This document shows positions 10,327 to 64,000 of a stretch of DNA of 64,000 nucleotides, in pieces (positions within the stretch are counted from its first letter, which is position 1; every line of letters starts with the position of its first letter). This DNA is from Rudaea sp. (GTDB lineage Bacteria > Pseudomonadota > Gammaproteobacteria > Xanthomonadales > Rhodanobacteraceae), in NCBI GenBank assembly GCA_050737915.1, contig JBOHYL010000019.1, forward strand, positions 6,927-70,926. Reading direction: 5' to 3'. The notes under the pieces are model-generated. The model ran no database searches. It saw nothing but the letters and a program-made list of their open reading frames with translations, and was not told where the DNA came from. A program made the position numbers and the translations under genes.

Positions 10327-10399
10327 GCGCACTTCTCCACTCACGGTTTCCGGCAACGCGTGTTCGACCTTAGCCGAACGTGCGGGTTCAATCCATACG

Positions 10400-10457: not shown

Positions 10458-10464
10458 GATACAC

Positions 10465-12472: not shown

Positions 12473-12476
<4 letters not shown>
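11391..12476 (+). CDS. metH: methionine synthase, homocysteine S-methyltransferase domain subunit (split MetH, part 1)
   Basis: The real start is [35 protein letters not shown] at ATG 11391. The track ORF from 10980 is a 5' extension overlapping the upstream gene. The protein ends ...[15 protein letters not shown], which is the Zn/Hcy site motif. Confidence 0.9.
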
Positions 12477-15160
<2,684 letters not shown>

Positions 15161-16738: not shown

Positions 16739-17799
16739 TTCCTCGATTTAGACGTCTTTACGGCTTTATTACGAGACCTTCGCGCGGCCGCCTGCCGCGG
16801 TGACGGCGGCGGCGACGTGTGCTTTTTCAGAGCCGCAATCTCGGCACGCAACACGCCAACCTCGCGGTGCAGATCGGCCACCCCCGTTTCGCCGTTGCCG
16901 ACACGTCGCAGCTCGTGCAGACGCTTGTGCACACTGTTCAGTTCGCTGCGCGTGGGCATGCCCAGATCGGTGCCGATGCGCTCGACCTCGGCCTGCACCT
17001 GGGCACGCACGCGCATCTGCGCATTGACTACATCTCCGTAGACCTTGCGGAAATCGTCCGACAGCGCGACTTCGGCCCAGGCTTCCTCGGCAGCGTCTAC
17101 CCACAAATCGTAGAGTGCGCGCGGCGAGTCGATGCGCCGTCCGGGTTCATCGCGCTCGGCCAGCTTGTTTTCGAATATAACAAAGCTGCGCTGACTCGAT
17201 TTCAGGATCAACGCGTTGTAACGATTCAGCGCGTCCTGGTATTCGACCAGGGCTGCGGCGGATTTCTGGTAATGCTCCTGATGCTCGCGCGCATAACCGA
17301 ATGCCGGCGCGTTGAGCCACGACAAGCCTTCCTGCCGGGCTTGCGCAAGAAACGGCGCGAAGCTCGACGACAATTGCTCGATGCCTTGCGCACCGGGCCC
17401 GGCGATATCGCGCAGCATCTTTGCCAGCGGATTGTCCACCAGCGTGGCGTCGGATCCGGCCAGATTGAAGCCGTTGCGCAAGGCTTCGGCCCATGCTTTC
17501 GGATCGCCGCCGCCATTCGGCTGGCCCGCTGCCGCAATCATCGATTGCATGAGCGCCGTGTAGCTTCTGGCGCCTGCCATCAGCCGATCCAGGGTTTCGT
17601 TCTGCTTGCCGGCACCGCTGAACATCCGCGACCATTGCTCCAGACCCTCGTGCCAGGGCGTGCCGGTGTCCGGCGTCTGCCCTGCGGAATTGCGCGTCGC
17701 GTCGGACCACGCCGACCAGTACTGCTTTTGCAGCGCCTGCCAGTCGGCCATCCAGTCCTGGGGGGATTTTTTCTCGCTCATCGGCTGTCTCCGCGACAA
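16735..17799 (-). CDS. phaE: class III PHA synthase, PhaE subunit
   Basis: 354 aa. The N-terminal WQALQKQYWSAWSDA region and its position immediately upstream of a class III phaC fit PhaE. Confidence 0.8.
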   Translation of the reverse strand: MSRRQPMSEKKSPQDWMADWQALQKQYWSAWSDATRNSAGQTPDTGTPWHEGLEQWSRMFSGAGKQNETLDRLMAGARSYTALMQSMIAAAGQPNGGGDPKAWAEALRNGFNLAGSDATLVDNPLAKMLRDIAGPGAQGIEQLSSSFAPFLAQARQEGLSWLNAPAFGYAREHQEHYQKSAAALVEYQDALNRYNALILKSSQRSFVIFENKLAERDEPGRRIDSPRALYDLWVDAAEEAWAEVALSDDFRKVYGDVVNAQMRVRAQVQAEVERIGTDLGMPTRSELNSVHKRLHELRRVGNGETGVADLHREVGVLRAEIAALKKHTSPPPSPRQAAARRSRNKAVKTSKSRN

Positions 17800-48519: not shown

Positions 48520-49947
48520 TTACTCGCCGATTGTCAGGCGCCTGATCTTGCCATTGCCCAAGTCGACGCGCACGATCTCGTGCACGTTGGTGTTGGCAAT
48601 CCATAGCGCACCCGCGCCCAGGGCCAGTCCCGCCGGTTCGCTCAGGGTGTAGGGCAGATTCAGCGTGCGCACCTCGCCACTGCGCAAATTCAATGCCTTG
48701 ATCCGGGCGTTGTAGCTGTCGGCTACGAAAACCAGGCCACGCGGGTCGGCACAGGCGGCGAGCGGGTGTTGCAAGCGTGTATCTTCGCGTTTGCCGGCGA
48801 CGTCGCCGAAATCGTACAGACCGCTGCCGATCAGGGTGCTGACGCGGTTGTCCAGCAGCCTCAGCAAGCGAATCGCGGATGCCGCCGCATCCGTCACCAC
48901 GAGCTGCTGGCCGACCAGGCTGAGGCAGCACGGCTGGGCGAAGCTCGCGGTCACGCCCACGCCATCGGTCAGACCCAACTGACCACTGCCGGCCAGCACC
49001 ACCAGTTTGCTGCGCAGCGTATCGAGCTGCCAGATCTGGTTCTGGCCGGAAACGGCAATGTAGAGATTGTCCCCCAGTAGCGCGACGTCAGCCGGCGCGG
49101 ACATCGCCAGTTTAGTCGGCTCGGTATATTCGTTTGGCAGATCGTGCCCACGTGTGCCGGTACCGGCCACGGTTTCCACCTCGCCGTTGAGCAGGCGGAT
49201 ACGGCGCACGGCATGATTGCCGGTATCGGCCACGTACAGCGCATCCTTGCCCGCTGCCAGACCATGTGGATCCGTGAAACCGGCGTCGCTGCCACGTCCG
49301 TCCCAGTAGCCGGGATTGCCCGAGCCGAATTGGCGCAGGATGCGGCCTTCGTGCGTGCATTCCAGAATCCGGTTGTGGCCGGTGTCGGCGATCCACAAAC
49401 TGGTATCGCCCAGCGCCAGCCGGGTTGGAAAGCGCAGCGGCGAACGCGCTTCCGGCCGTACCGTGGCAACGTCGGATTCGTACACGCGCAGATCGTGCGT
49501 GGCCGCTTCGTCGAGCAAATGTCCGATCAGGGCATCGGCTTCCTCGCGTCGGCCTTCACCGGGCAACAACGCCGCAAGCTGGCCCTGTGCGTCGATCACG
49601 GCCAGGGTCGGCCACGCCTGCACGCCATAGGCCTGCCAGAGCAGATATTCCGGGTCGTTTGCAACCGGATGGCGGATGTGATTGCGATTGACCGCCTTGA
49701 GTACGGGCTCGCTTTGCCGCTGGTACGCGTACTTGGGCGTGTGCACGCCGATCACGCTCAGGCCGTCGTGGTATTTGTTCTCCAGATAGCGCAAATCCGG
49801 AAGAATATTGCGGCAATTGACGCAATCGAACGTCCAGAAATGCAGCACAGTCACACGACCGCGCAAACCCGCCAGCGTGGGCGCCGAGTCGCTATTGACC
49901 CAGTCGAGCGAGGTGGGCAGTTCCGGCGCGGCGATTCTGGCATTCAT
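48520..49947 (-). CDS. thioredoxin-fold (redoxin, CxxC) domain fused to an NHL-repeat beta-propeller
   Basis: 475 aa. The N-terminus VTVLHFWTFDCVNCRNILPDL has a CVNC redox motif. The C-terminus has repeated ...LYVADTGNHAVRRI..., ...LWIADTGHNRILE... and ...VFVADSYNARIK... NHL blades. Confidence 0.8.
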   Translation of the reverse strand: MNARIAAPELPTSLDWVNSDSAPTLAGLRGRVTVLHFWTFDCVNCRNILPDLRYLENKYHDGLSVIGVHTPKYAYQRQSEPVLKAVNRNHIRHPVANDPEYLLWQAYGVQAWPTLAVIDAQGQLAALLPGEGRREEADALIGHLLDEAATHDLRVYESDVATVRPEARSPLRFPTRLALGDTSLWIADTGHNRILECTHEGRILRQFGSGNPGYWDGRGSDAGFTDPHGLAAGKDALYVADTGNHAVRRIRLLNGEVETVAGTGTRGHDLPNEYTEPTKLAMSAPADVALLGDNLYIAVSGQNQIWQLDTLRSKLVVLAGSGQLGLTDGVGVTASFAQPCCLSLVGQQLVVTDAAASAIRLLRLLDNRVSTLIGSGLYDFGDVAGKREDTRLQHPLAACADPRGLVFVADSYNARIKALNLRSGEVRTLNLPYTLSEPAGLALGAGALWIANTNVHEIVRVDLGNGKIRRLTIGE

Positions 49948-52073: not shown

Positions 52074-53804
52074 TCAGGCGGGACTCTCCAGCCGCGCATC
52101 CGCATCGTCGTTGGCTGCCGGCACTGCATCAACCGCCTCGTCGGCAGTATCAGGCGCCACCATTTCCACGCGGAAATAGCCGCCCCCGTTGTCGCTGCAA
52201 CGCACACCGCGCAGGGACTCGATGGAAGGTTCCACCGGCCAGCTGAACGGATCGCCGGGCCGAGTCAACTCGATTTCGCCGCTGTCGCGGTCGAACAACG
52301 CCGGCACCACGATCACCGGCGTGCCGCCATTCGGGTCTTGCAACGCCAGCGCGCGCATCGCTGCGCGAGGCACGCCGTTGCTATCGAAACTGCGTACCGC
52401 CGCCGGCTGTGCCCGCCGTGCCAGCAATTCCACGCCGGCCTGCATGCTGCCATCGCCCTCGATCCGCAACCAGCGGATCGCGCCGATCATCCAGTCGCGC
52501 GATTCATCGTCGTCGGCCGGCGGCGCCAGACCGAGCAACTCGCCGACTTTCACGCGGATTCCATCAATACTGTCCCAAGCGAGCCGATAGCCGCCAAGAC
52601 TCTGGTCGAGCACGCGCGCCGGGATGCGGCGGATGCGTGGCCCTGCACTCGCATTTGTCCATGCGGCAGCGCGGTCGCTCTCGTGAAGGGTGATCGCCAC
52701 ACCGCGGGTCTTGACCAGAAACCCCTCGAAATCCATGCCTCCCGCCAACACGTAATGCAAATCGTGCAGGCCTATCACCGATTCGAGCATATGCCCTGCG
52801 GACAAGCGTTGCTGGACGCGATCACTGGCCACATCCCACACTCGCAGCAAGCGCGCAACGAAATCGATTGCCACCTTGATCGACGCGCCGCGCGCGCCGA
52901 ATTCGGTCGCCGTGGTACCCGGCGCCAGCAAGGCCAGATGGCCTTCCAGAAAACGCACCAACCCGCTGATTTCCAGTGCCCACAGGCCGGCGTCCGGCGT
53001 TTCGCGTTCTTCCGGCAAATAGCCAAGACTGCGATCGGAGTCAGTGCGGATGGCGATGGCGCCTGCAGGCGCGCGCCCTTCGCGCAGCTCGCAATGCGAG
53101 GCCCACAAGCCGGTCAACTGATAAATGTCGCTGTTCTCGCGCTGAGTGAAACGGTACGGATTCGACAGTGCGAACAGCAATGCATGGATGTAGGCCAGAC
53201 GCACGTTCGTCTGGCCAGCGCCACGCAGCGATTCGATCACGGGTTTTTCGTCAACGCCGACGGCAACCGCGAAACGGAACAGGTCGTGCAGGTTCTGCCA
53301 CGCGCCTGGCGGCGGCGCGCGGTAGCCAAGGTACGCCTGGTACAGAAAGCCGCCGCGATAGCCAAGCGCACGCACCAGCGCCAGCGCGGCTGCCTTTCCG
53401 CGCAGGAATGGTACCGCGCCGGCGGGAGCGCACATATCGTGCACCGCTGCGCAATAACCCAATGCAAGCTCGTGTTCGAAATCCTGCGCGAGCTGGCCGA
53501 GCTGCCGCTTCTGTGGCGGCAGCGGAAAACTTTCGGCGATTACCTGTCTGCCAAGCGAGGAGACGATCGTACCTACTGGCTCGCGCAGCATTTCCAGCGC
53601 ATCGATGCGCTGTTGCGGATCGATACGCAGCTGATTCATCTCGCGCAATGCGACGATCAGCAGGCGTGAGGTAGCCGCGGGATTGGCCAGTGGCAGTTGT
53701 CCCAGCCACTGGCGTAACGATTTCGCGTCGGTAGCGAACGAATTGCGGCGTGGAACATGCCGCTCGGGCAGTCCCTCAGCCAATCGTTCGAACAACGAAC
53801 TCAT
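52074..53804 (-). CDS. large hypothetical protein with a C-terminal PilZ-like motif (RRIPAR..DQSLGG)
   Basis: A clean 576-aa ORF with G+C-rich third positions like its neighbours. I recognise no enzymatic motifs. The motif is at codons 390-405 (nt 52590-52637). Confidence 0.55.
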   Translation of the reverse strand: MSSLFERLAEGLPERHVPRRNSFATDAKSLRQWLGQLPLANPAATSRLLIVALREMNQLRIDPQQRIDALEMLREPVGTIVSSLGRQVIAESFPLPPQKRQLGQLAQDFEHELALGYCAAVHDMCAPAGAVPFLRGKAAALALVRALGYRGGFLYQAYLGYRAPPPGAWQNLHDLFRFAVAVGVDEKPVIESLRGAGQTNVRLAYIHALLFALSNPYRFTQRENSDIYQLTGLWASHCELREGRAPAGAIAIRTDSDRSLGYLPEERETPDAGLWALEISGLVRFLEGHLALLAPGTTATEFGARGASIKVAIDFVARLLRVWDVASDRVQQRLSAGHMLESVIGLHDLHYVLAGGMDFEGFLVKTRGVAITLHESDRAAAWTNASAGPRIRRIPARVLDQSLGGYRLAWDSIDGIRVKVGELLGLAPPADDDESRDWMIGAIRWLRIEGDGSMQAGVELLARRAQPAAVRSFDSNGVPRAAMRALALQDPNGGTPVIVVPALFDRDSGEIELTRPGDPFSWPVEPSIESLRGVRCSDNGGGYFRVEMVAPDTADEAVDAVPAANDDADARLESPA

Positions 53805-53850: not shown

Positions 53851-55812
53851 TCAGGCGCCCCGCAATGCCCGTGTCAGCACGCGCCGTAAAATGCGCTCGG
53901 CAACGCCTCGCGGCCGGGCCAGGCCCATGCGCGCAAGCAGCGGCTCGTCCTGTGCACGTGGCGATCCTCGCCAAAGCGCTCCGACGCTGAAAGCGGCCAG
54001 GCGCGGCCTGCTCGTCGCCAGCGCCTGCAAGCGCTGCAACGCCGGCAGCAATGCCAATTCCACCGCGTCGAAATCGCTGCCGAAGGGAAACCGCGGAAAC
54101 CGATCGCGCTGGGGCGCCAGCGCAGCCGCCAGTCGCTCCGGAGTGTTGCGCCGCCACGCTGCCGGCAATACAAAATTCCGATGCAGTTTGCCGCTGGCTT
54201 TCGCCTGCGTCGCCAGTTCGTCGACGCAGCGCGCATCAGCGATCGCGAGCATGGCGACAATGCATTCTTCGTCGGATTTGCCGCGCAGGTCGGCGATGCC
54301 ATATTCGGTGATGTAGATATCGCGCAGATGGCGCGGAATCGTGACCTGACCGTAGTTCCAGCGAATGTTCGAGTGCAATTTGCCGCCGCTGCGCCGGGTG
54401 CTGCGCAACAGCAGGATCGAACGTCCGCCGGCGAGCGCATGCGCCATCGCCACGAAGTTGTACTGGCCGCCGACGCCGCTGACAACCTGGCCGTCTTCGA
54501 GCGTATCGGAAACGGCCGCACCGAGCAGGGTCGCCATCATGCAGGTGTTGAAAAATCGCGCGTCGCGGTGCTGAAGGGCATTCAGCGTCGCGTGCTCGCC
54601 GTAGAGTTGGTTGATGTCCGACACGCGCGTCATCGACAGCCCGTCGAAATCTGCGCCGCGCAGATCGCGCAACCATGTGTAGAAATCTTTCGAACCCAGA
54701 TAGAACGCACCGCGCAGGTAGCGCCCATCGCTGCGCCGCGAAACATCCACGCTGCGGCCCAGCGCCAGAGCTTTTTCGACGTCAAGATCGTCGAACACGC
54801 GGCGTTTGAGAATTCCCGCACGCGCCAAATGCATGAATCCGTCCATCACCATTTCACTGGCGCCATACACGCCGTGCGCGAACGGATCGAGCCCACCGCA
54901 ATTGTCGGGGCCACTGGCATGGCCAAGCGCCATCAGTGCCGCGCGATAGTCTGCGTTATGCACATGCCGCAGCAAAAGTGCATGTACCAACGCGTCGGAC
55001 AGTACGCCGATACCGATCTGCAAGGTGCCGCCATCGCGCACCAGGCTACTGGCGTGCAGCCCGAGCGCGTATTCGGCGATATCGACTTGGGCGCGCGGCA
55101 GCGCAAATAGCGTGTGCGCGGAAGCCGGATCGTCCAGCACAATGTCGAAGAATGCTGCGTCCGTTTCTGCTTCGTTGCCGATGTACGGCAAGTCCGGGTG
55201 AATCACGCCGACTACCAGCGGTCGCGGCGCACCGATCGCAGCCATGCGCTCGAGCAGATCCGCGCTAACATCCGGATTGCAGGCCAGGCTGTAACGCCGT
55301 TGCGCGCCCTGCCCGCGTGCCGCAATCAACTGCGCGACCGCGTTGATGCCAATGCCGGCCAGATCGCGCGCCACATGCGTATAGTTGAGGCTGGCGTAGT
55401 CGCGCTGCGATTGTGCCACGCCGAGCATCGCACCGGATTGCAGATAAAACTCGTGCACACGGATATTGGCCGGCAGCGCATTCGCATGCTGTGCCGCGAC
55501 CCAGGCCAGATCAGGGTAGTCCTTGCCGAAATTCCGTTCGAGAAACGGCGCGAGAAAGCGCCGTTCCAGATCACTCTTCGGTGTGGGCCGCGCCAGCGAC
55601 AAGGCGGTATAGATATCCAGCTTCAGCGCCGGATCGCGCGCCGCCTGCGCATAGATCGCGTTGAGCAGCACGTTCGGCTTGCCCAACCCCAGCGGCGTGG
55701 CCAGACGCAGGGTCCCGCGCGCATGCGCGAGGATGCGCGCCAGGCAGGTGGAGGTGTCGCTGAGCAGTTCCGGCATGTCGCCATCATCGCAGATCGTGCC
55801 GGATACTTGCAC
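53851..55812 (-). CDS. acetyl-CoA hydrolase/transferase family protein
   Basis: 653 aa. It has ATPLGLGKPN...IYTALSL in the N-terminal part and GQVVSGVGGQYNFVAMAH in the C-terminal part. These are typical of the acetyl-CoA hydrolase/4-hydroxybutyrate CoA-transferase superfamily. The start may be ATG 55776 (MPELL...). Confidence 0.8.
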   Translation of the reverse strand: MQVSGTICDDGDMPELLSDTSTCLARILAHARGTLRLATPLGLGKPNVLLNAIYAQAARDPALKLDIYTALSLARPTPKSDLERRFLAPFLERNFGKDYPDLAWVAAQHANALPANIRVHEFYLQSGAMLGVAQSQRDYASLNYTHVARDLAGIGINAVAQLIAARGQGAQRRYSLACNPDVSADLLERMAAIGAPRPLVVGVIHPDLPYIGNEAETDAAFFDIVLDDPASAHTLFALPRAQVDIAEYALGLHASSLVRDGGTLQIGIGVLSDALVHALLLRHVHNADYRAALMALGHASGPDNCGGLDPFAHGVYGASEMVMDGFMHLARAGILKRRVFDDLDVEKALALGRSVDVSRRSDGRYLRGAFYLGSKDFYTWLRDLRGADFDGLSMTRVSDINQLYGEHATLNALQHRDARFFNTCMMATLLGAAVSDTLEDGQVVSGVGGQYNFVAMAHALAGGRSILLLRSTRRSGGKLHSNIRWNYGQVTIPRHLRDIYITEYGIADLRGKSDEECIVAMLAIADARCVDELATQAKASGKLHRNFVLPAAWRRNTPERLAAALAPQRDRFPRFPFGSDFDAVELALLPALQRLQALATSRPRLAAFSVGALWRGSPRAQDEPLLARMGLARPRGVAERILRRVLTRALRGA

Positions 55813-55854
55813 ATTCCGTGCGCGGCTTGGGTATCATCGGCGCGGGAGGGTGGC

Positions 55855-58266
55855 ATGACCGAACGTTTCAAGCTCGCCATCGTCGGTTCCGGGCCGGGCG
55901 GGCTATCGGCCGCCGCGCGTGCGGCCGAGCGCGGCGAATCGCATGTGCTGCTCGAAGCCGAAGCACATCTGTCGAACACGATCTTCCGCTACCAAAAGGG
56001 CAAGTTCGTGATGGACGAGCCGGGCATCCTGCCACTGCGTGCGCCGGTGCCGTTCAAGGCCGGCTCGCGCGAAACGATTCTGGATGCCTGGGACGAAGCG
56101 GCCAAGCGCCTGAAGATCAACACTCGCTACAAGCACGAAGTCCGCGCGATCAAGGCCAGCCCGGGCGGCGGCTTCGAGATCCAATGCACGAATGGCCAGA
56201 GCCTCGCCGCCGAGCGCGTGGTGATGGGGATCGGCTTGCAGGGCAATATCCGCAAACTCGGCTGCCCCGGCGAAGATCTGCCATTGGTGCAGTACCAGCT
56301 GGACGACCCGGACGAATACGAAGGCGAAACCATCGCCGTGGTCGGCGCCGGCGATGCCGCCATCGAAAACGCGGTGGCGCTGGCGAAACAAAACAACGTC
56401 GTCATCGTCAATCGCAAGGACGAATTCGCGCGCGCCAAAAAAGGCAATGAGTCGGCGATTCTGAAGGCGATCGAGGATGGCACCATTGAGTGCTATTACG
56501 ACTCCGCGCCCGAGCGCGTGGATGCGCTCAGCGTCGGCCGCAAGAAAGGCCGACTTATCCTCAGCACGAAAAATGGCAAGGCACAGATCCTGCTCGACCG
56601 CGTGATCGCGCGCCTCGGCGCCACCGCGCCGCGCGGTTTTGTCGAAGCCTGCGGTGTGGTGTTTCCGAACAAGGACCCGGCCGCGGTGCCGGCGATCAGC
56701 TCGCAATACGAATCCAACGTCAAGGGCCTGTACATTGTCGGCGCGCTCGGCGGCTATCCGCTGATCAAGCAGGCGATGAATCAGGGCTACGAGGTCGTCG
56801 AATACATCCTCGGCAACAAAGTCGAGCCTGCCGACGAGCCGTTGCTCAAGGCCAAGTTTGCGGCGATGCCCGGCTTCCGCAACGTCGACGAGGCGTTGGC
56901 GTGCGTGCAGAAGAACGTGCGTCTGCTCGCCCACATCACGCCGTTGCAATTACGCGAGTTCATGCTCGATTCGGACATCCGCACGCCCAAGCCGGGCGAG
57001 ACGATCTTCGCGCGCAATGATTACACGAATACGTTTTTCAGCATCGTCGAAGGCGAAGTGCAGGTCGTGATTGACGCGGCCACGAACCAGCGCATCAGCC
57101 TCAAACGCGGCGAATTTTTCGGCGAGATGAGTCTGATCTCCGGGCGCCGACGCTCGGCCACAATCCTTGCCGGATCGAACTGCGTGCTGATCGAGACACC
57201 GCGGCGCTCGATGAACCGCCTGATCAACTCGGTTGAGGCGGTCAAGCGCGAGATCGATCAGGTGTTCATCCTGCGTGCGATCCAGTCGCGTTTTGCGCCC
57301 GAGGCTTCGGCCGAACAACTCGCCGAAGTCGTTTCGGCTTCGCGTCTGGAGCGTTTCAAGGCCGGCGACGTGCTGTTCAACGAGGGCGAAATCGGCGACT
57401 GCCTGCATCTGGTGCGCGTGGGCTCGCTGACCATCTCGCGCAACATCGGTGGCAAGGATGTGGTGCTCAGCTACGTGCCGGCGGGCAATTACGTCGGCGA
57501 GATGGCGCTGATGGGAGAATCGCGGCGCTCGGCCACAGCACGCGCGGCGATCGCCACCGAAACGGTGCGCCTGGATGGCGACAGTTTCAAGAAACTGGTC
57601 AACCGCATTCCGGTGCTGCGCCTGCGCCTGCAATCCGAATATCGCCAGCGCACGGCGGCGAATCTGGCGATGCAGTCTATGCCGGGGGGCGGCGACATCA
57701 TCTCGTTCCTGCTTGCCCAAGGCGCCGGCGAAGCCACGGATATCCTGTTGATTGACGAATCGCTGTGCGTGCGTTGCGACAATTGCGAGAAAGCCTGCGC
57801 CGAAACCCACGGCGGCACCTCGCGGCTGGACCGCGAAGCCGGCCCAACCTTCGCCAACGTGCACGTGCCGACCTCATGCCGGCATTGCGAGCATCCGCAC
57901 TGTATGAAGGATTGCCCGCCTGACGCGATCCACCGCGCGCCCAATGGTGAGGTGTTCATCGCCGACAACTGCATCGGTTGCGGCAACTGCGAGCGCAACT
58001 GTCCGTATGGCGTAATCCACATGGCCTACAAGCCACCGAAGAAACCCGGTCTGATCCAATGGCTGCTGTTCGGTCGCGGCGACGGCCCCGGCGAAGCGCC
58101 GCACGATCCGCACGACCATGCTGCAGGCGAGGTCAAGAAGGCGGTCAAGTGCGACATGTGCAAGGATCTTTCCGGTGGCCCGGCCTGTGTGCGCTCGTGT
58201 CCGACCGGTGCGGCGATCCGCATCTCGCCTGAGGAGTTTCCCGCCTACGCGCAGTCGCGGCGCTGA
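55855..58266 (+). CDS. multidomain redox protein: FAD/NAD(P) pyridine-nucleotide oxidoreductase + 2 cyclic-nucleotide-binding domains + 4x[4Fe-4S] ferredoxin module
   Basis: The real start is MTERFKLAIVGSGPGGLSAAA (ATG 55855, GGGAGGG upstream). The track ORF from 55114 is a 5' extension. Dinucleotide folds are IVGSGPGG and VVGAGDAA. The cNMP phosphate-binding cassettes are FGEMSLISGRRRSAT (57118-57162) and VGEMALMGESRRSAT (57493-57537). Cys clusters are CVRCDNCEKAC, CRHCEHPHCMKDCP, CIGCGNCERNCP and CDMCKD...CVRSCP (57766-58203). Confidence 0.85.
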   Translation: MTERFKLAIVGSGPGGLSAAARAAERGESHVLLEAEAHLSNTIFRYQKGKFVMDEPGILPLRAPVPFKAGSRETILDAWDEAAKRLKINTRYKHEVRAIKASPGGGFEIQCTNGQSLAAERVVMGIGLQGNIRKLGCPGEDLPLVQYQLDDPDEYEGETIAVVGAGDAAIENAVALAKQNNVVIVNRKDEFARAKKGNESAILKAIEDGTIECYYDSAPERVDALSVGRKKGRLILSTKNGKAQILLDRVIARLGATAPRGFVEACGVVFPNKDPAAVPAISSQYESNVKGLYIVGALGGYPLIKQAMNQGYEVVEYILGNKVEPADEPLLKAKFAAMPGFRNVDEALACVQKNVRLLAHITPLQLREFMLDSDIRTPKPGETIFARNDYTNTFFSIVEGEVQVVIDAATNQRISLKRGEFFGEMSLISGRRRSATILAGSNCVLIETPRRSMNRLINSVEAVKREIDQVFILRAIQSRFAPEASAEQLAEVVSASRLERFKAGDVLFNEGEIGDCLHLVRVGSLTISRNIGGKDVVLSYVPAGNYVGEMALMGESRRSATARAAIATETVRLDGDSFKKLVNRIPVLRLRLQSEYRQRTAANLAMQSMPGGGDIISFLLAQGAGEATDILLIDESLCVRCDNCEKACAETHGGTSRLDREAGPTFANVHVPTSCRHCEHPHCMKDCPPDAIHRAPNGEVFIADNCIGCGNCERNCPYGVIHMAYKPPKKPGLIQWLLFGRGDGPGEAPHDPHDHAAGEVKKAVKCDMCKDLSGGPACVRSCPTGAAIRISPEEFPAYAQSRR

Positions 58267-58275: not shown

Positions 58276-59172
58276 ATGCACGATTCCATTCTTACCCACG
58301 CCAAATCGCGCTATTTGTGGACTGCGCTGGCGCTCTCGCTCGCGTCGCTGGTCGCCTACATCGTCCACGATCCGGGCGGCCCGCCCAACGGCGGCACCTG
58401 GCTGGGCTACACGCTCGGCACGATCGGTGCGCTGCTGATCGTGTGGCTGATGCTGTTCGGCATGCGCAAGCGCCGCTACCGCGACAGTGCCGGCACGCTG
58501 CGCGGTTGGTTGTCCGCGCACATCTACCTTGGCACCTCGCTCATCCTGATCGTACTGCTGCACAGCGGTTTCCAGTTCGGCTGGAACGTGCACACATTGG
58601 CGTTCGTGCTCATGCTGGTGGTGATCTTCTCCGGATTTTTCGGCGTCTACGTGTATCTGCGCTATCCGAACCTGATGACACGCAACCGCGAAAGCGCGAC
58701 GCGCGATGCCATGCTCGAGGAAGTCGCTGAAATCGACCAGAATGCACTCGCGCTGGCCGACGGCATCGACCCGAAAATCCACGCCATCGTGCTGCGCTCG
58801 ATCCAGAACACGCGGCTGGGCGGCGGCGTATGGACGCAATTGCGCGCGCACGACGGCTCGGATCTGGCGCTGGAGTCGTTGCACCGGAACATTGCCGAAC
58901 GCGAAAACAAGCAGGAAATGAAAACCTCCGAAATGCCGACCATGTTCGCGATGGTCGATTTTCTCGCCGGCCGCGCTACCGACAAACAGGGCGAGGCGCT
59001 GCGCAAGCTGATCGACCTGATCTCACGCAAGAAGGGACTGGCGACGAAAGTCGCGCGCGACATGCAATATCAGGCGATGATGGAAATCTGGCTGTATATC
59101 CACGTGCCGCTATCGTTCGCTTTGCTGGCGGCGCTGATCGCGCACATCGTTTCTTCTTTCTTCTATTGGTAG
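58276..59172 (+). CDS. integral membrane protein, 5 predicted TM helices with conserved-looking histidines (possible b-type haem carrier)
   Basis: 298 aa. Hydrophobic segments are WTALALSLASLVAYIV, LGYTLGTIGALLIVWLMLFG, LSAHIYLGTSLILIVLLHSGF, VHTLAFVLMLVVIFSGFFGVYVYL and IWLYIHVPLSFALLAALIAHIVSSFFY. A charged loop of about 110 aa precedes the last helix. It starts 9 nt after the upstream stop. Confidence 0.7.
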   Translation: MHDSILTHAKSRYLWTALALSLASLVAYIVHDPGGPPNGGTWLGYTLGTIGALLIVWLMLFGMRKRRYRDSAGTLRGWLSAHIYLGTSLILIVLLHSGFQFGWNVHTLAFVLMLVVIFSGFFGVYVYLRYPNLMTRNRESATRDAMLEEVAEIDQNALALADGIDPKIHAIVLRSIQNTRLGGGVWTQLRAHDGSDLALESLHRNIAERENKQEMKTSEMPTMFAMVDFLAGRATDKQGEALRKLIDLISRKKGLATKVARDMQYQAMMEIWLYIHVPLSFALLAALIAHIVSSFFYW

Positions 59173-59179
59173 GTCGAGA

Positions 59180-60859
59180 ATGCGCTGGCTGATCCGCCGA
59201 GTGCTGAAAAAAGGCAAGGGCGCCATTTCCTACGAGGAAGACGTCCATTACGGCGACGTGCTCACCATCGGGCGCGCTGCCGATCAGGCGATCTTTCTGC
59301 CCGACATGCGCGCCGCACTCAACCACGCGCGCATCACTCTGCTTTCCGGCGGCCAGTACAAGATCGAATCACTGATCCTGGCCGGCATCCGCGTTGATGG
59401 CCAGATCACCTACACCACGACCGCGGGTGCCGGAGCTGCGGTGGAAATCGGCAATACGCGCCTGACCCTCCTCGCCGCGCCGCAGGACTACGACGGCGCC
59501 GTGGAAGTAAGCACACTCGACAAGTCCGAGCAGCAAGCCGAGCTGGCGCGCGCGGCGAAACCCACGCGACTGGCCCAGACCGGGCTGAGCAAACGCCGGC
59601 CGGCGTGGATCCTGTTCTTTGGAATTCTTTTGTTCTGCCTCGCCCTGCCGATGCTCGGCCACTTCATTCCGGGATTCGGCCATATGCTGCGGAGCGTGCC
59701 GCTGCTGCCGAGTACGCAAAGCTGGAACCCCGGCCCGCTTGACGCCGCGCACCGTTTCTTCGCCAGCGACTGCACGAAGTGTCACCAGCACGCCTTTCTG
59801 ACCGTGCGCGACGATGCCTGCCTGGTCTGTCACGTCAACACCGCCGCGCACGCGGACCCTGCCAAGTTCAATCTTCCGCAATTGGGCAACGCGCAGTGCC
59901 GCAGTTGCCATCAGGATCACCAGGGGCCGAGTGGCATGATCCGCACCGACCAACGCCTGTGTGCGGATTGCCATGCCGACCTGAAGGCACGCACCAAGGG
60001 CGTCAGCACCTTCGCCGACGTCAGCGATTTCGGCACGGCGCATCCGCAGTTCAAGGTCAGCCTGCCCGGCTGGGACGCCGCCGGCAACTTCGCCCCGCAG
60101 CGCGTGACCTGGGCCGCCGACCTGAAGGAAAATTCCGGGCTCAAGTTCAACCACGAAAAGCACCTGAAACCCGATGGGCTGAACACCCCGAACGGTCACC
60201 GCGTGCTCACCTGTGCGACGTGCCACACGCCCGATGCCGGCGGCGCGAAGATGCGTCCGATTCAGTTCAAGAACATGTGCCACGACTGCCACAAGCTCGG
60301 CTTCGACACGCTCGCACCCGGGCGCGAAGTGCCGCACGGCAAGGTCGCCGCAGTCGCGTATACGTTGAGCGAGTATTACGCCAAGGTGGCGCTGGAAGGC
60401 GGCTATCTGGATGCACGCTCGCCCGACATCGTGCAGCAGCGGCGCCGCCCCGGCGCGCCGCCACTGTCACAACAGCAGCAGCAGGAAGCACTCGCCTGGG
60501 CACGCCAGCGCGCGCGCGAGGCCACCGACAGCCTGTTCACCGGCAAGGCGTGCAGTACGTGCCACAAGGTCACGCCGCCGCGCACCGACGACGACACCTG
60601 GCATGTGGCACCGGTACGCGTGTCTGGCGTGTGGTACGCGGACGCGAAATTTACCCACGCCAAGCACACCACGATCCAGTGCAAGGATTGCCACGACGGC
60701 GCGCCGAAGTCCACGCAATCGGCCGATCTGCTCATTCCCGGCATCGCCAACTGCCGAACTTGCCACGCTGGCGCCAAGGCGAAGGATAAGGTCGCCACGA
60801 CCTGCATCGCCTGCCACGCGTACCATCAATCGGCGACGCTGAAGATGGGTACATTATGA
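59180..60859 (+). CDS. FHA-like domain / single TM / decahaem c-type cytochrome
   Basis: 559 aa. The N-terminus ...GDVLTIGRAADQAIFLPDMRAALNHARITLLSGGQYKIESL..AGIRVDGQ follows the FHA pattern (GR...D..L.D......H..I). The TM helix is PAWILFFGILLFCLALPMLGHF. Ten CXXCH motifs follow: CTKCH, CLVCH, CRSCH, CADCH, CATCH, CHDCH, CSTCH, CKDCH, CRTCH and CIACH (nt 59771-60817). It starts 7 nt after the upstream stop. Confidence 0.85.
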   Translation: MRWLIRRVLKKGKGAISYEEDVHYGDVLTIGRAADQAIFLPDMRAALNHARITLLSGGQYKIESLILAGIRVDGQITYTTTAGAGAAVEIGNTRLTLLAAPQDYDGAVEVSTLDKSEQQAELARAAKPTRLAQTGLSKRRPAWILFFGILLFCLALPMLGHFIPGFGHMLRSVPLLPSTQSWNPGPLDAAHRFFASDCTKCHQHAFLTVRDDACLVCHVNTAAHADPAKFNLPQLGNAQCRSCHQDHQGPSGMIRTDQRLCADCHADLKARTKGVSTFADVSDFGTAHPQFKVSLPGWDAAGNFAPQRVTWAADLKENSGLKFNHEKHLKPDGLNTPNGHRVLTCATCHTPDAGGAKMRPIQFKNMCHDCHKLGFDTLAPGREVPHGKVAAVAYTLSEYYAKVALEGGYLDARSPDIVQQRRRPGAPPLSQQQQQEALAWARQRAREATDSLFTGKACSTCHKVTPPRTDDDTWHVAPVRVSGVWYADAKFTHAKHTTIQCKDCHDGAPKSTQSADLLIPGIANCRTCHAGAKAKDKVATTCIACHAYHQSATLKMGTL

Positions 60860-60955
60860 GCCCCGCCTTGCGCTATGATCGGGTCACGGGGGATCGGGCA
60901 ATGCCGGCGTAAGCGACCGCGTCGGCGCAGAGTGCCGCAATCGGGGAGAGGAGCG

Positions 60956-62950
60956 ATGCGGAACAAACGGCATGTCTGGCTGGCACTGGCGACGGCATTG
61001 ACGCTTGCCGCGTGTGGCGGCGGCAGCAATTCCGGCGATCCGGAAGGCACCGCTCCGCCGCCGCAATCCACGCCGGATTCGGGCTGCAACGGTTCATGCG
61101 CCAATGCGCAGACGTACCTGACACAGAGCGACGTGCAGACCGTGATCGCGCAGGCGGCGGCCGAAGCGCAAGCGCAAGGCAAACCCGCGGTGATCGCCGT
61201 GGTCGACCGTGTCGGCAATGTGCTTGCGGTCTATCGCATGACCGGCGCGCCAGACACCATGACAATTACCTCTGACCGCGGCGTGGTCGGCGGACTGGAA
61301 GGCCTTGCCGTTCCGAGCGAGCTGGCCGCGATCGCCAAGGCCGTGACCGGCGCGTATCTGTCCTCCGAAGGCAACGCGTTTTCTACCCGCACGGCCAGCC
61401 AGATCGTGCAGGAACACTTCAATCCGGGCGTGCTCGGCACACCGGCCGGCCCGCTGTTCGGCGTGCAGTTTTCACAACTGCCTTGCTCGGATTTGGCCAC
61501 GCATTTTTCTGCAGGAACCGGAGCAGGCCCTCATAACTCACCGCTCGGCTTGTCCGCCGATCCGGGCGGCTTCCCCTTGTATGAAAACGGAACGCCGGTC
61601 GGTGGCGTCGGTGTCGCCGCTGACGGCATCTACGGCCTCGATCCGAATGTGATGGACAAGGACCGCAATATCGACGAGCTGATCGCCATGGCCGCCACCT
61701 ACGGTTTCGGTGCGCCCACCGACCGCCGCGCGGATACGATCACGGCCGGTGGTATCACCTTGCGCTTCAGCGATGTCGATTACGCCGACTTGGCCACGCA
61801 TCCGCAAAACGCGCCGCCGTATCCCACTTTGACCGGCGCACTGATGACGGCGCCCGGCTATTTCGACGGCAGTGCGATTCTGGCCGGAACCGCATTCGGC
61901 CAGACCGATTCCGGCATACGTGCGGACACGCAGTTCTACTCGGGTCTGGATGCGTTCGTGCTCGACGACGGTCATGGCAACAACCGCTATCCACCCAGGG
62001 CAGGTACCGACGGCGCCGATGCACTGACCGCCGACGAAGCGCAGATTCTCGTGCAACAGGCGCTGATGGTGGCCAATCACGCACGCGCACAGATTCGTAA
62101 TCCGCTCGGCAGTCAGGCGCGCGTGTCTGTTTCGATTGTGGATACCAACGGCGTCGCCCTTGCGGTCGCACGCACGCGCGACGCGCCGATCTTCGGCACC
62201 GACGTGTCGCTGCAGAAGGCGCGCACGGCGGCATTCAATTCCGGCAGCTATGCGGCCGGCGTGCTGCAGGGTCTGGCACCAGCCAACTATTTCGCCGACA
62301 GCATCGACGTCGCCAACAAGAAAGTCATCTTCACTACGGTCGCGCAAAGCAATATCGGCGATTACGTGGCTGCGGTGCGCGCCTTCCTCGGCCTGCCCGA
62401 CGCGCTCGAGGGCGGTTACGCGTTCACCGACCGTGCCGGCGGCAACCTGTCGCGCCCGTTCTTTCCGGACGGTGTGGATGGCAACCCGAACGGACCGTTC
62501 AGCCATCTGTTGGCGCAATGGAGCCCGTTCCAGGAAGGCTTGCAACTCGATCTTGTCTACAACGCGGTCGCACTGAATCTGGTCGGCTATCTGCAAGCCG
62601 AAGGCTTTGCGATCAGTGCCGACAACGTGCCCGCCGCGACGCAATTCTGCACGGCCAGTCCGCGCCTTGCCAACGGCATACAAGTGTTCCCCGGCAGCGC
62701 GCCGATCTATCGCGGCAGCAAACTGGTTGGCGGCATCGGTGCCTCCGGCGATGGCGTGGACCAGGACGACATGGTCAGTTTTCTCGGCCTGTACAACGCC
62801 GGCGTCGCACTCGGCGGCGCAATCGGCAATGCGCCGCCGGCGATACGCGCCGACAATCTGGCGCCGCAGGGCGTACATCTGCGCTATGTCGAATGTCCCC
62901 AGGCACCGTTCCTGGACAGCAACGCCGACAATGTTTGCGATGGGAAGTGA
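60956..62950 (+). CDS. lipoprotein with two GlcG/DUF336 (HbpS-like, haem-binding/degrading family) domains
   Basis: The real start is MRNKRHVWLALATALTLAAC (lipobox LAAC; ATG 60956, GGGGAGAGGAG upstream). Domain 1 is LTQSDVQTVIAQAAAEAQAQGKPAVIAVVDRVGNVLAVYRM...GGFPLYENGTPVGGVGVAADG. Domain 2 is LTADEAQILVQQALMVANHAR...VSVSIVDTNGVALAVARTRDAPIFGTDVSLQKARTAA...IYRGSKLVGGIGASGDGVDQDD. The track ORF from 60875 is a 5' extension. Confidence 0.75.
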   Translation: MRNKRHVWLALATALTLAACGGGSNSGDPEGTAPPPQSTPDSGCNGSCANAQTYLTQSDVQTVIAQAAAEAQAQGKPAVIAVVDRVGNVLAVYRMTGAPDTMTITSDRGVVGGLEGLAVPSELAAIAKAVTGAYLSSEGNAFSTRTASQIVQEHFNPGVLGTPAGPLFGVQFSQLPCSDLATHFSAGTGAGPHNSPLGLSADPGGFPLYENGTPVGGVGVAADGIYGLDPNVMDKDRNIDELIAMAATYGFGAPTDRRADTITAGGITLRFSDVDYADLATHPQNAPPYPTLTGALMTAPGYFDGSAILAGTAFGQTDSGIRADTQFYSGLDAFVLDDGHGNNRYPPRAGTDGADALTADEAQILVQQALMVANHARAQIRNPLGSQARVSVSIVDTNGVALAVARTRDAPIFGTDVSLQKARTAAFNSGSYAAGVLQGLAPANYFADSIDVANKKVIFTTVAQSNIGDYVAAVRAFLGLPDALEGGYAFTDRAGGNLSRPFFPDGVDGNPNGPFSHLLAQWSPFQEGLQLDLVYNAVALNLVGYLQAEGFAISADNVPAATQFCTASPRLANGIQVFPGSAPIYRGSKLVGGIGASGDGVDQDDMVSFLGLYNAGVALGGAIGNAPPAIRADNLAPQGVHLRYVECPQAPFLDSNADNVCDGK

Positions 62951-62951: not shown

Positions 62952-64000
62952 ATGAGTATTCGACTTCGCTCGCGCATCCTCCCCGCCGGCATCGCGCTTG
63001 CCGGGATTGCTGCATTTTCTATAAGTCCACAAATACACGCGCAAACAGCCAGCACCATGCCGCATGTGTTGGAACTGTTCGGCGTGCTGCCGGCACCAAC
63101 CTACGATCCGTCCAAATCCGAAATACCGCGGCGTCGCCCGGGGCATCCGTACGAACCACTGCCGGAATTCAAGGTGATCAATCCCGATGGCGTGCCGCCC
63201 GCGCCGGTGGATCAGGCCGGGGCGTTCCTGCCGGTGCCGGATCGCTGGCGCATCATGGAAACCCTGGGTTTCAAGTTTCCGTGGTACGACCCGTACAACC
63301 AGAATATCTACAAAGGCGACAAGCCGATCGACGGCAAGGATCATTTCCTCGTCCTGACCGGCATCTCCGACACCTTTATCGAGCCGCGCAGCGTGCCCAC
63401 ACCGGTCGCGCCGCAGAATACCGGGCATGCCGGCGAATTGGGCGTGTTCGGTGGCATCAATCAACTGCTGCTCGCGCAGAACTTCATCGCCAGCGTGGAT
63501 TATTACCACGGCGATACCACATTCAAGCCGCCCGACACCGAATACAAGGCGACGCTCGCGTTCAACTACAACCGCGTCAACGTGCGCGAAGTGCGTGCCC
63601 TGCAGATTGACCCGCGACTTGGCACCAGCCGCGACGATGGCTTCATCGGCGTGCAGGAACTATGGTTCGACAAGCATCTGCGCGACATCGATTCACGCTA
63701 CGATTTCGACAGCTTGCGCATCGGCATCCAGCCATTCTCGACCGATTTCCGCGGTTTCCTGTTCCAGGATTCGCAACCGGGTATCCGCCTGTTCGGCGAC
63801 CGTGACAACAACCGCTGGCAGTACAACTTTGCGTATTTCCGGCGCCTGGAAAAAGATGTCAATTCCGGTTTGAACGACGTGACCCGCGCACCGCGCCACG
63901 ACGATGTCCTCGTTGCCAACCTGTATCGCCAGGATTGGCCGTGGCTGGGCTATACCTCGCAGGCGACAATCGTCTACAACCACAATGACGACAGCACGAT
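62952..64000 (+). CDS. secreted protein of unknown function (signal peptide; possibly outer-membrane); truncated by the window end
   Basis: Absent from the ORF track because it has no stop. My translation from ATG 62952, 1 nt after the upstream TGA, gives MSIRLRSRILPAGIALAGIAAFSISPQIHAQTAST...PDRWRIMETLGFKFPWYDPYNQNIYKGDKPIDGKDHFLVLTGISDTFIEPR...RWQYNFAYFRRLEKDVNSGLND... The frame is open through position 64000. Confidence 0.6.
   Translation, partial: MSIRLRSRILPAGIALAGIAAFSISPQIHAQTASTMPHVLELFGVLPAPTYDPSKSEIPRRRPGHPYEPLPEFKVINPDGVPPAPVDQAGAFLPVPDRWRIMETLGFKFPWYDPYNQNIYKGDKPIDGKDHFLVLTGISDTFIEPRSVPTPVAPQNTGHAGELGVFGGINQLLLAQNFIASVDYYHGDTTFKPPDTEYKATLAFNYNRVNVREVRALQIDPRLGTSRDDGFIGVQELWFDKHLRDIDSRYDFDSLRIGIQPFSTDFRGFLFQDSQPGIRLFGDRDNNRWQYNFAYFRRLEKDVNSGLNDVTRAPRHDDVLVANLYRQDWPWLGYTSQATIVYNHNDDST

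Follow-up and report, generated by a model that had tools for sequence, protein, structure and literature searches.

Gene A of the Rudaea DNA studied here encodes, in one chain, a flavoprotein domain, two cNMP-binding domains (CNB-A and CNB-B) and a four-cluster ferredoxin. It opens a conserved operon, A-B-C-D-E-F, and this operon, with its di-histidine membrane protein and multihaem cytochromes, is a concrete respiratory context for A. We propose, with about even confidence, that A is the cytoplasmic head of an NAD(P)H-linked electron path through the cell envelope that is controlled by a cyclic nucleotide. In such a path the N-terminal flavoprotein of A would exchange electrons with NAD(P)H, akin to TrxR-type ferredoxin-NADP reductases, and the four [4Fe-4S] clusters at the C-terminus would conduct them to the membrane. 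B would take them over via two b haems across the membrane and hand them to C, a decahaem cytochrome anchored in the membrane on the periplasmic side, and in the Rudaea genome they might travel onward via lipoprotein D, the outer-membrane barrel E and the large decahaem protein F. The window, that is the whole stretch of 64,000 nucleotides that was analyzed, holds genes A to E:

55855-58266, forward strand: gene A, 803 codons plus stop, flavoprotein + CNB + CNB + four-cluster ferredoxin
58276-59172, forward strand: gene B, membrane protein of 298 residues with five predicted helices, annotated as 'hypothetical protein', no Pfam family
59180-60859, forward strand: gene C, 559 residues, FHA domain on the cytoplasmic side, single membrane helix, periplasmic domain bearing 10 CxxCH motifs
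60875-62950, forward strand: gene D, three HbpS-like (DUF336/GlcG) stretches in Pfam
62952-64000, forward strand: gene E, signal peptide and porin-like protein, cut by the window end, no Pfam family

The genes are closely packed, with gaps of 9 nt (A-B) and 7 nt (B-C), and E begins 2 nt past the stop of D. The true start of D is likely 60956, which gives a lipoprotein signal (…LTLAAC). In related loci E is followed by F, a decahaem protein of about 1275 residues with LVIVD repeats, which here falls past the end of the window.

The limits of the gene A reading frame are exactly 55855-58266 on the forward strand, and the Pfam scores of the 803-residue product lie far above chance level, in the order flavin, CNB, CNB, Fe-S. 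The original prediction had read this frame as a single polypeptide fusing an NAD(P)/FAD oxidoreductase, two cNMP domains and a ferredoxin, with the regulatory tandem placed between the flavin and Fe-S modules, and reading frame and Pfam order bear this out. The two Rossmann GxGxxG motifs and the two cassettes with conserved Gly-Glu...Arg-Ser-Ala residues that it listed are also in place, whereas of its four CxxCxxCxxxC(P) motifs all four are present but the strict spacing is kept just in motifs 1 and 3. The parts of A are as follows:

55855-56808, forward strand: residues 1-318, flavoprotein domain with two dinucleotide folds (Pfam, Foldseek, cysteine positions)
55885-55902, forward strand: GSGPGG (motif position)
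56344-56361, forward strand: GAGDAA (motif position)
56836-57294, forward strand: residues ~328-480, helical lead-in and CNB-A (Pfam, model, alignments)
57118-57162, forward strand: phosphate-binding cassette of CNB-A, FGEMSLISGRRRSAT (motif position)
57295-57717, forward strand: residues ~481-621, CNB-B (Pfam, model, alignments)
57493-57537, forward strand: phosphate-binding cassette of CNB-B, VGEMALMGESRRSAT (motif position)
57742-58224, forward strand: residues 630-790, HycB/DmsB/NrfC-type ferredoxin, 16 cysteines in four motifs (Pfam, profile matches)
Cysteine motif 1: C638/641/644/648, CxxCxxCxxxC, followed by Ala, not Pro
Cysteine motif 2: C675/678/683/687, CxxCx4Cx3CP
Cysteine motif 3: C706/709/712/716, CxxCxxCxxxC, followed by P
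Cysteine motif 4: C766/769/778/782, CxxCx8Cx3CP
58027-58140, forward strand: low-confidence insertion within the ferredoxin, with a conserved LLxWLLxG segment (AF2 model)

The AF2 model of the product has a pLDDT of 87 and a pTM of 0.78. A Foldseek search found no whole-protein analogue in the PDB; the best match (TMq 0.36) covered the flavin domain alone.

The flavoprotein domain is matched in Pfam by Pyr_redox_3 (E 7.5e-29, residues 9-296) and Pyr_redox_2 (E 5.3e-20). In Foldseek its fold is closest to YpdA/Bdr (7a7b, TMt 0.84), and the TrxR-type FNRs 3lzw, 3ab1 and 6gar match as well. Compared with YumC from B. subtilis (3lzw), the Chlorobaculum FNR (3ab1) and YpdA/Bdr (7a7b) the fold is alike (TMt 0.62-0.84), and two GxGxxG motifs without a CxxC are common features; however, the identity to these enzymes is just 18-21% and A is fused to its presumed Fe-S acceptor. 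A thiol-disulfide reductase of the TrxR or Bdr kind was rejected because A has neither the CxxC nor the loop cysteine. Residues 1-630 contain no CxxC, and the thioredoxin reductase model TIGR01292 reaches 52 bits against a cut-off of 343. The YpdA/Bdr model TIGR04018 gives 108 bits against 340, and the GSGPGG loop is free of cysteine; the active-site cysteine of YpdA presumably sits in the first GxGxxG loop, at a position where A has a glycine. What A shares with the TrxR-type FNRs is the TrxR fold with two dinucleotide sites and without a redox disulfide. We predict an FAD-bound NAD(P)H:ferredoxin-type enzyme.

At the other end of the chain, several Fer4 families cover about residues 630-790 in Pfam, the DmsB-type Fer4_11 among them. 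The cysteine spacing is the usual HycB/DmsB/NrfC pattern, and none of the 16 cysteines varies among 45 sequences with identities as low as 30%. The module matches HycB (7z0s_B) over residues 631-790 and also HycB3 (7qv7_A), with ArrB, HydN, DmsB and NrfC as further sequence matches. FdnH-FdnI, HybA-HybB and HycB have four equally spaced cysteine motifs, and H-x13-H pairs in the membrane partner are a further likeness; in contrast, the ferredoxin of A is cytoplasmic, fused to a flavoprotein and without a molybdopterin or hydrogenase subunit. The reading that A belongs as a subunit to an enzyme for DMSO, nitrite or formate was rejected, since no catalytic molybdopterin or hydrogenase gene adjoins gene A in the window and the NCBIfam scores for DmsB, NrfC, HydN, ArrB, HybA and FdnH all stay far under their cut-offs (ArrB 59.6 against 450 bits, DmsB 50.8 against 214 bits).

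Four clusters in the HycB arrangement would form a wire of about 40 Å, which is typical of electron transfer. This, together with the invariance of all 16 cysteines, argues against A being mainly a sensor, whose flavin and Fe-S groups would signal NAD(P)H or redox status and, with the cNMP, control assembly or activity of B-C without bulk flux. Fe-S clusters and CNB-fold domains do occur together in sensors such as FNR, and split forms of A without the flavin domain exist, one of them (P0239) in a locus without cytochromes. However, the Pfam scan of A gave no DNA-binding, kinase or GGDEF output domain, and a direct A-B fusion sets the wire at a membrane redox partner. We consider a pure sensor very unlikely and continue with A as the electron-transferring head of the path.

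The fusion is a natural protein (P0125) whose B part is recognized with an E of 3e-53, and it places the N-terminus of B in the cytoplasm. A second protein (P0137) carries two FHA domains fused to A, and natural fusions of these two kinds link the parts of the system with one another. In a split form (P0234) a CNBx2-Fer4 protein is followed by a B homologue. B itself follows the pattern of paired histidines spaced by 13-14 residues on two parallel helices: across 42 sequences neither H82/H96 nor H276/H290 changes, and within predicted helices the partners of each pair are 14 residues apart. H106 is invariant as well. B is most likely a dihaem b carrier, with two b haems stacked across the membrane. 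Searches for remote relatives gave a faint PF01292 match on the last helix (20.6 bits against a cut-off of 30.1), nothing meaningful when the B profile was compared with PDB sequences, and probabilities of at most 1.1% in hhalign against E. coli FdnI, MsrQ and YodB. The AF2 model built from close homologues is poor (pLDDT 62, pTM 0.43), and Foldseek with this model returned no match below E 0.2. There is thus no significant profile or fold similarity that would place B among cytochrome b561/FdnI (PF01292) or ferric-reductase-like proteins, and the haem assignment rests on the histidine pattern and the context.

A four-cluster ferredoxin with a dihaem b subunit is also the design of FdnH-FdnI, and FdnH-FdnI reduces menaquinone. 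A and B could accordingly be read as an alternative NAD(P)H:quinone oxidoreductase that works in FdnH/FdnI fashion from the cytoplasmic side, with C as a separate CymA/NrfH-like quinol-cytochrome link. The H276/H290 helix of B does align with the H-x13-H of FdnI, although not significantly, and the authors of a preprint on Ferrigenium straubiae liken their cytochrome to CymA/NrfH (10.64898/2026.01.22.701106). Against this stand our searches of B, which found neither a quinone-site motif nor homology to quinone-reactive subunits, the position of all C haems outside the membrane behind a single helix, and the tight coupling of A, B and C. We regard a quinone route as quite unlikely; the path from A through B to C probably bypasses the quinone pool.

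C is matched by the Pfam families FHA, Cytochrome_C7 and c3, and exactly 10 CxxCH motifs are found in all of its 52 orthologues (52/52). Of 80 gamma- and alphaproteobacterial loci, about 60 retain the A-B-C block, and most of them D-E-F. About ten loci from Betaproteobacteria show the order D-E-F-G-A and have neither B nor C within 8 kb, while marine loci combine A-B-C with a periplasmic tetrahaem protein alone and lack outer-membrane parts. The logic of cytoplasmic NAD(P)H, flavin, two transmembrane haems and an outside acceptor is that of NOX, FRE, STEAP and MsrQ-Fre, and P0125 resembles the single-chain NOX layout. However, homology between B and MsrQ is undetectable, A adds an Fe-S wire and the CNBs, and the acceptor is a multihaem cytochrome. 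With MtrCAB, Pcc and Hmc/Tmc the system has in common multihaem cytochromes and an outer-membrane barrel (C, E, F) and an Fe-S subunit in the cytoplasm that connects to cytochromes of the periplasm, whereas the known porin-cytochrome conduits draw on quinol dehydrogenases. It is not of the MtrCAB type, as C scores 16 bits against a cut-off of 209 for the OmcA/MtrC model and E falls into no family.

Two gene clusters of similar content are described in preprints. The ptdABCDEFG cluster encodes a cNMP-binding protein with 4Fe-4S (PtdE), a 'ferric reductase-like' membrane protein (PtdF) and a periplasmic decahaem protein (PtdG), besides a porin and a tetrahaem protein, and neither a function nor a regulatory idea was put forward for it (10.1101/2023.11.21.568154). 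Matched by gene content only, A-B-C as well as E and G correspond. In contrast to A, the ptd flavoprotein is a separate gene (PtdC); the outer cytochrome is a pentahaem protein and not the LVIVD decahaem F, and an HbpS-like D is not listed. In Ferrigenium straubiae an inner-membrane nonahaem cytochrome with a cytosolic FHA domain adjoins a 5-TM protein that has no match in InterPro, and a [4Fe-4S] protein of the cytosol; the authors propose inward flow to quinone, but assign no function and propose no cNMP control (10.64898/2026.01.22.701106). The likeness to our operon is one of description only, with nine haems there and ten in C, and histidine pairs, flavin domain and cNMP domains are not noted by these authors.

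Outward flow, with NAD(P)H as donor and acceptors in the periplasm or outside the cell, is the likeliest direction in our operon. All cofactors involved are reversible carriers, and the same path could also run inward, from donors outside the cell or in the periplasm, Fe(II) for example, through F, E, C and B to A, which would then act as NAD(P)+ reductase or electron sink, or to quinone; cNMP control would still be possible. Such a direction is in line with the Ferrigenium straubiae preprint, where the FHA-nonahaem cytochrome is proposed to connect the oxidation of Fe(II) with the inner membrane (10.64898/2026.01.22.701106), and with the occurrence of the A family in Burkholderiales and further lineages with lithotrophic members. 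However, most hosts of A belong to aerobic heterotroph lineages (Rudaea, Tahibacter, Dokdonella, Pseudomarimonas), the marine loci lack outer-membrane parts, and nothing like an energy-coupling device is seen in A, B or C. Reduction of NAD(P)+, at a potential of about -320 mV, would be uphill from Fe(II)-level donors. Inward flow is therefore unlikely in our view, and the outward path is the one discussed below.

The control of this path would reside in the CNB tandem. The cNMP_binding family (PF00027) matches A in two stretches (E 5.8e-36, 122.8 bits against a gathering threshold of 27.5), and the alignment with the tandem of PKA-R/PKG spans its whole length, taking in both domains and the helices between them; in contrast to these proteins, flanking redox modules in the same chain and not a kinase would be controlled. 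Both cassettes are canonical (Gly-Glu … Arg-Ser/Thr-Ala) and match those of the proven binders PKA-R, Plasmodium PKG and MloK1. Across three proteobacterial classes, all 79 genomes compared (57-100% identity) retain G423/E424/R433 and G548/E549/R558, while the positions around them vary. The ligand-contact residues are thus strongly constrained, and by sequence the binding pocket is not degenerate. A regulatory role is the natural reading of the tandem, and A is a putative binder of cAMP or cGMP. The suggestion in the original prediction that a cyclic nucleotide might gate electron transfer within the chain has thus gained partial support. Binding may reshape the tandem in the way the long B/C helix of PKA-R changes its conformation. 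In the AF2 model the long C-terminal helices of CNB-B (586-607, 610-621) lead directly into the ferredoxin module. A reshaped tandem might alter the distance between flavin and first cluster or the way in which the Fe-S module docks to B, and the drain of NAD(P)H would be turned on or off.

The cassettes erode in distant members of the family (30-60% identity), where R433 is kept in 22 of 35, R558 in 25 of 35 and E549 in 22 of 35 sequences; cNMP binding can therefore not be family-wide. Members that have lost the cassette Arg or Glu still keep both domains and the 16 cysteines, as one would expect if the CNBs were a structural spacer or scaffold, or bound another ligand as in CooA, NtcA and CprK of the CRP/FNR family, with electron transfer being constitutive or controlled elsewhere, for instance by FHA. 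Linkage to cyclases points the same way: class III cyclase genes lie near A in two of 82 loci (L069 and L030, each one gene upstream of A), and in the motif scan, which covered 1.24 Mb (the 82 loci plus the window), this is about chance level. FHA domains also recur in the system, as C has one and P0137 carries them joined to A; however, in C the SxxH of this domain is missing its canonical Ser. Constant ribose- and phosphate-contacting Gly, Glu and Arg amid variable neighbours are hard to explain for a mere spacer, and the match to proven binders also speaks against one. We hold this reading to be unlikely and retain a cyclic nucleotide as the candidate switch. An earlier case of a TrxR-fold flavoenzyme with a fused cNMP-binding domain is ATII-TrxR, which was expressed and assayed, although not for an effect of cNMP (PMC6544261). 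In contrast to A, it has a single N-terminal CNB, retains the redox disulfide and lacks an Fe-S module.

Known extracellular electron transfer uses the quinone pool as source and is controlled mainly at the level of transcription. We advance tentatively, as a possibility short of an even chance, that in A a cyclic nucleotide, as second messenger, exerts allosteric control over electron transfer within a respiratory-type chain, which would make A the first such enzyme, and that A-B-C(-D-E-F) is a quinone-independent route from cytoplasmic NAD(P)H to periplasm and cell surface, a switchable 'valve' widespread in soil and marine Proteobacteria. If so, a direct, post-translationally switchable path from NAD(P)H to haem would be a new means by which bacteria discharge or direct reducing power, with a bearing on metal and humic reduction in soil, on redox balancing at low oxygen and on bioelectrochemical engineering. 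The two separately reported preprint clusters would also be unified, provided that the match in gene content holds. No description of the A-F system was found in the literature on LVIVD-multihaem-porin clusters and in surveys of outer-membrane cytochromes.

The architecture of A was counted in at least 584 species-level genomes and at least 907 clusters at E<=1e-30. It is thus frequent in genomes and only unstudied. The original prediction had named as adverse an architecture both common and already assigned a function: common it is, while no function has been assigned, and the homologues are named in databases merely 'cyclic nucleotide-binding domain-containing protein'. One characterized member would annotate thousands of genes. 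The statement that the window holds no cyclase stands as far as the comparison of its 22 open reading frames with Pfam and a six-frame scan for class III motifs reach. Two sequence elements lie upstream of gene A:

55808-55837, forward strand: promoter-like site TGCACA-18-TATCAT, 5' of gene A (consensus match only)
~55845-55851, forward strand: RBS-like GGGAGGG, 5' of gene A (sequence match)

Gene A, the flavoprotein with two cNMP-binding (CNB) domains and a four-cluster ferredoxin, lies at the head of a tight row of genes that read in the same direction. The original prediction had read from the DNA a fusion of flavin, cNMP and Fe-S modules in one polypeptide, and both the open reading frame and the Pfam results agree with this. 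Residues 9-296 match Pyr_redox_3 (7.5e-29), Pyr_redox_2 is also matched (5.3e-20), two stretches match cNMP_binding (5.8e-36) and residues 630-790 match several Fer4 families. The glycine motifs and phosphate-binding cassettes that had been quoted were all found, at the following positions.

Gene A, its motifs and the genes that follow it
55808-55837, promoter-like site 5' of gene A; a GGGAGGG also precedes the ORF
55855-58266 (+), gene A, single ORF of 803 codons plus stop
55885-55902, glycine motif GSGPGG of A
56344-56361, glycine motif GAGDAA of A
57118-57162, cassette A of A, FGEMSLISGRRRSAT
57493-57537, cassette B of A, VGEMALMGESRRSAT
58276-59172 (+), gene B, 9 nt after A
59180-60859 (+), gene C, 7 nt after B
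60875-62950 (+), gene D, likely start at 60956 with a lipoprotein signal; three HbpS-like stretches
62952 to window end (+), gene E, starting 2 nt after the D stop; signal-peptide protein of no family

Tested for family membership, A qualifies both as a genuine CNB-domain protein and as a four-cluster ferredoxin, and it falls outside TrxR, YpdA, DmsB, NrfC, HydN and every other named family. A word-indexed search with A gave 6373 matches at E<=1e-10. The best 120 of these are all full-length at 78-96% identity, belong to Xanthomonadales-type MAGs such as Rudaea and Tahibacter, and are named by their source only 'cyclic nucleotide-binding domain-containing protein'. When each species was sampled by a single genome, the matches listed included full-length A at 57-91% identity from Gamma-, Alpha- and Betaproteobacteria. 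All representatives clustered at 50% identity were searched as well; 907 clusters match at E<=1e-30, and about 50 of the representatives are full-length, the most distant at 32% identity. The architecture is common, being encoded in at least 584 species-level genomes. A is a real, well-conserved and common feature that is built from known modules and has no assigned function. The family also includes short variants of two CNB domains and ferredoxin alone, and in one member of 1212 aa (P0127) a repeat-like insertion of about 500 residues in the regulatory region splits the CNB tandem.

The AF2 model of the whole A protein is of high confidence (pLDDT 87, pTM 0.78). No whole-chain analogue was found in the PDB, where the match is limited to residues 1-330. 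The top structural match of this part is YpdA/Bdr (7a7b, TMt 0.84), followed by TrxR-type ferredoxin-NADP+ reductases (3lzw, 3ab1, 6gar) and thioredoxin reductases. A has no CxxC upstream of residue 638 and no Cys in the first glycine loop, and it scores far below the NCBIfam cut-offs of both TrxR and YpdA. A disulfide reductase is therefore ruled out, and the N-terminus is, as judged from these features, a TrxR-fold NAD(P)H flavoprotein of the type that reduces an Fe-S partner.

The presumed partner lies at the other end of the chain. The 16 ferredoxin Cys residues form four motifs with the spacing of the HycB/DmsB/NrfC pattern, and all 16 are invariant in 45 sequences with identities down to 30%. 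Four motifs of the CxxCxxCxxxC type had been predicted; motifs 1 and 3 follow this strictly, whereas motif 2 has a four-residue and motif 4 an eight-residue spacer. The module matches HycB (7z0s_B, residues 631-790) and HycB3, as well as the Fe-S subunits ArrB, HydN, DmsB, NrfC, DsrO and HybA, and attains none of the family cut-offs. Between Cys motifs 3 and 4 the model shows a low-confidence insertion (residues 725-762, window 58027-58140, pLDDT 54-56). It carries an amphipathic LLxWLLxG segment that is conserved family-wide, a candidate docking or membrane-contact element with the membrane or B as possible partner.

The regulatory domains had been placed between the flavin and the Fe-S modules. 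This order holds, and the CNB tandem is the sole covalent connection between the two; its final helices (586-607, 610-621) lead directly into the first cluster motif in the AF2 model. PKA regulatory subunits and PKG carry a CNB-A/CNB-B tandem to which the mid-region of A aligns end to end, with the cassette Gly, Glu and Arg in register. In CAP, PKA-R and MloK1 these residues hold the ribose 2'-OH and the phosphate. The expectation that both cassettes keep these contacts was borne out in 79 of 79 genomes from three proteobacterial classes (57-100% identity), in which G423, E424 and R433 of cassette A and G548, E549 and R558 of cassette B are invariant and the Ser/Thr-Ala-Thr after the Arg is nearly so. 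Among 35 distant representatives (30-60% identity) the cassette Arg is kept in only 22 and 25, and Glu-549 in 22. Thus, the residue pattern makes nucleotide binding likely in the clade of the window, but binding cannot be universal across the family. The erosion in distant members would suit CNB domains with a scaffolding role or a sensor function for some other ligand. Given the invariance in the clade of the window, we regard this as unlikely here.

Which nucleotide would be bound cannot be read from the sequence; cAMP binders such as MloK1 share 'RSAT' with PKGs that respond to cGMP. In Xanthomonas, cGMP signalling is known. As had been stated, no cyclase gene was found in the window, either among 22 of its ORFs compared with Pfam or by a class III cyclase motif scan in all six frames. 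In 2 of 82 loci the gene one place upstream of A, and on its strand, encodes a class III nucleotide cyclase (a GAF/PAS-cyclase at L069 4133-6424 and a membrane-anchored one at L030 148-2328); the two loci are unrelated and the count is about that expected by chance over 1.24 Mb.

The gene after A may offer a path into the membrane. B, named 'hypothetical protein' by every source, has five predicted helices and no Pfam family, and its membership of any haem b family could not be demonstrated. Five His residues are invariant (H82, H96, H106, H276, H290). Four of them form the pairs H82/H96 and H276/H290, invariant in 42 sequences and with a distance of 14 residues within each pair; the two helices that hold the pairs run in the same direction. 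Two bis-His b haems stacked across the membrane are the geometry of FdnI, cytochrome b561 and NOX-type domains, and by this analogy the His positions of B are those of two such putative haems. A natural fusion orients the protein: in P0125 (1110 aa) the C-terminus of A is joined to a full-length B (33% identity, E 3e-53), which places the N-terminus of B in the cytoplasm and the last Fe-S cluster next to B. H82 and H276 would then lie near the cytoplasmic face and H96 and H290 near the periplasmic face. In a split form lacking the flavin domain (P0234) a B homologue follows directly, which points to a conserved core of CNBx2-ferredoxin plus B, with the flavin domain as an accessory that may come separately. 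A second split CNBx2-ferredoxin (P0239, L081 5972-7762) lies ahead of a gene for a 596-aa polytopic membrane protein of no Pfam family, with no cytochromes nearby, and this suggests wider uses of the module.

C, with an FHA domain and one membrane helix, has exactly ten CxxCH motifs in 52/52 orthologues. In its FHA domain (59180-59480) the phosphothreonine site retains Gly-Arg and His, and nearly all of about 45 inspected orthologues have Ala/Val for the canonical SxxH Ser; the domain may serve for docking that does not depend on phosphorylation. Two canonical FHA domains stand in front of A in P0137 (1134 aa), which links the FHA domain of C to A. The order A-B-C is kept in about 60 of 80 loci. 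E is homologous to a 627-aa porin-like protein and is followed in related loci by F, a decahaem protein of about 1275 aa with LVIVD repeats; among Gamma and Alpha loci, most keep D-E-F. Often A is adjoined by a further gene, here called G, for a c554-like protein with four CxxCH and one CxxxxCH, and marine Rhodospirillaceae loci hold A-B-C and G only. About ten betaproteobacterial loci have the order D-E-F-G-A, then a DUF5916/CBM9-like 781-aa protein, with no B or C homologue within 8 kb (L061 (1-12800), L062, L064, L065, L068, L072, L076, L080, L054, L059).

The modules, their order and conservation, the operon and the fusions are observed directly, and together they outline a possible electron route. 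NAD(P)H would reduce the FAD of the TrxR-fold domain, electrons would travel through the four [4Fe-4S] clusters of A, cross the membrane via the two b haems of B and reach the ten c haems of C, from where they could pass on to periplasmic partners such as G or, here, via D, E and F to the cell surface. When PKA-R binds its ligand, the B/C helices, which correspond to the final tandem helices of A, are rearranged and the two CNB domains shift relative to each other; tunnelling of electrons drops sharply once the distance exceeds about 14 A. A nucleotide could therefore activate or inhibit the chain: a change in the tandem might connect or disconnect flavin and wire, or it might let the wire dock on B and release it again. 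The gating of electron transfer by a cyclic nucleotide that had been suggested is plausible on these sequence features, now with a concrete operon context. That the system as a whole exports NAD(P)H electrons under cNMP control and independently of quinone is the furthest-reaching interpretation, possible but short of probable. A route through quinone appears rather improbable, as the A-to-F design shows no sign of such a step, and we give still less weight to a purely sensory A.

At its input side the system resembles NOX/FRE or MsrQ-Fre, at the Fe-S-to-haem-b junction FdnH-FdnI, and at its output side porin-cytochrome conduits. By gene content only, the same module appears in two preprints, as ptdABCDEFG of marine Alphaproteobacteria (10.1101/2023.11.21.568154) and as a cluster of Ferrigenium straubiae that encodes a membrane nonahaem cytochrome with an FHA domain, together with a 5-TM and a [4Fe-4S] protein (10.64898/2026.01.22.701106). 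Inward flow has been proposed for a similar cluster of an Fe(II) oxidiser (10.64898/2026.01.22.701106), but here the step to NAD(P)+ would be uphill and nothing that looks like a coupling device is seen, so that we hold it to be unlikely. Neither preprint assigns a function, and neither mentions a fused flavin domain, paired His residues in B, natural fusions or a cNMP role (10.1101/2023.11.21.568154; 10.64898/2026.01.22.701106). A CNB-TrxR fusion has been expressed, its cNMP response not being assayed there (PMC6544261).

On the other side of A lies a divergent acetyl-CoA hydrolase/transferase-like gene (53851-55812 (-), C-terminal domain 5e-36, likely start near 55776), which adjoins A in its closest relatives only. 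A 576-aa ORF (52074-53804 (-)) without a match in Pfam or NCBIfam searches recurs upstream of A, by ispG, in Xanthomonadales-type loci at 29-76% identity, and this may be only lineage synteny. The ORFs 9523-10464 (-) and 40908-42236 (-) had no Pfam match. Elsewhere in the window, one ORF fuses an ArsR-type HTH to a SAM-dependent methyltransferase domain (10465-11394 (+)) and another a thioredoxin-like (redoxin/AhpC-TSA) domain to NHL repeats (48520-49947 (-)). Ordinary metabolic genes lie at 3189-8177 (-), 12188-15160 (+) and 15668-17799 (-), and those of the window include an NAD-specific glutamate dehydrogenase (1661 aa), a B12-dependent methionine synthase and, as a PhaC-like/PhaE pair, a class III PHA synthase.
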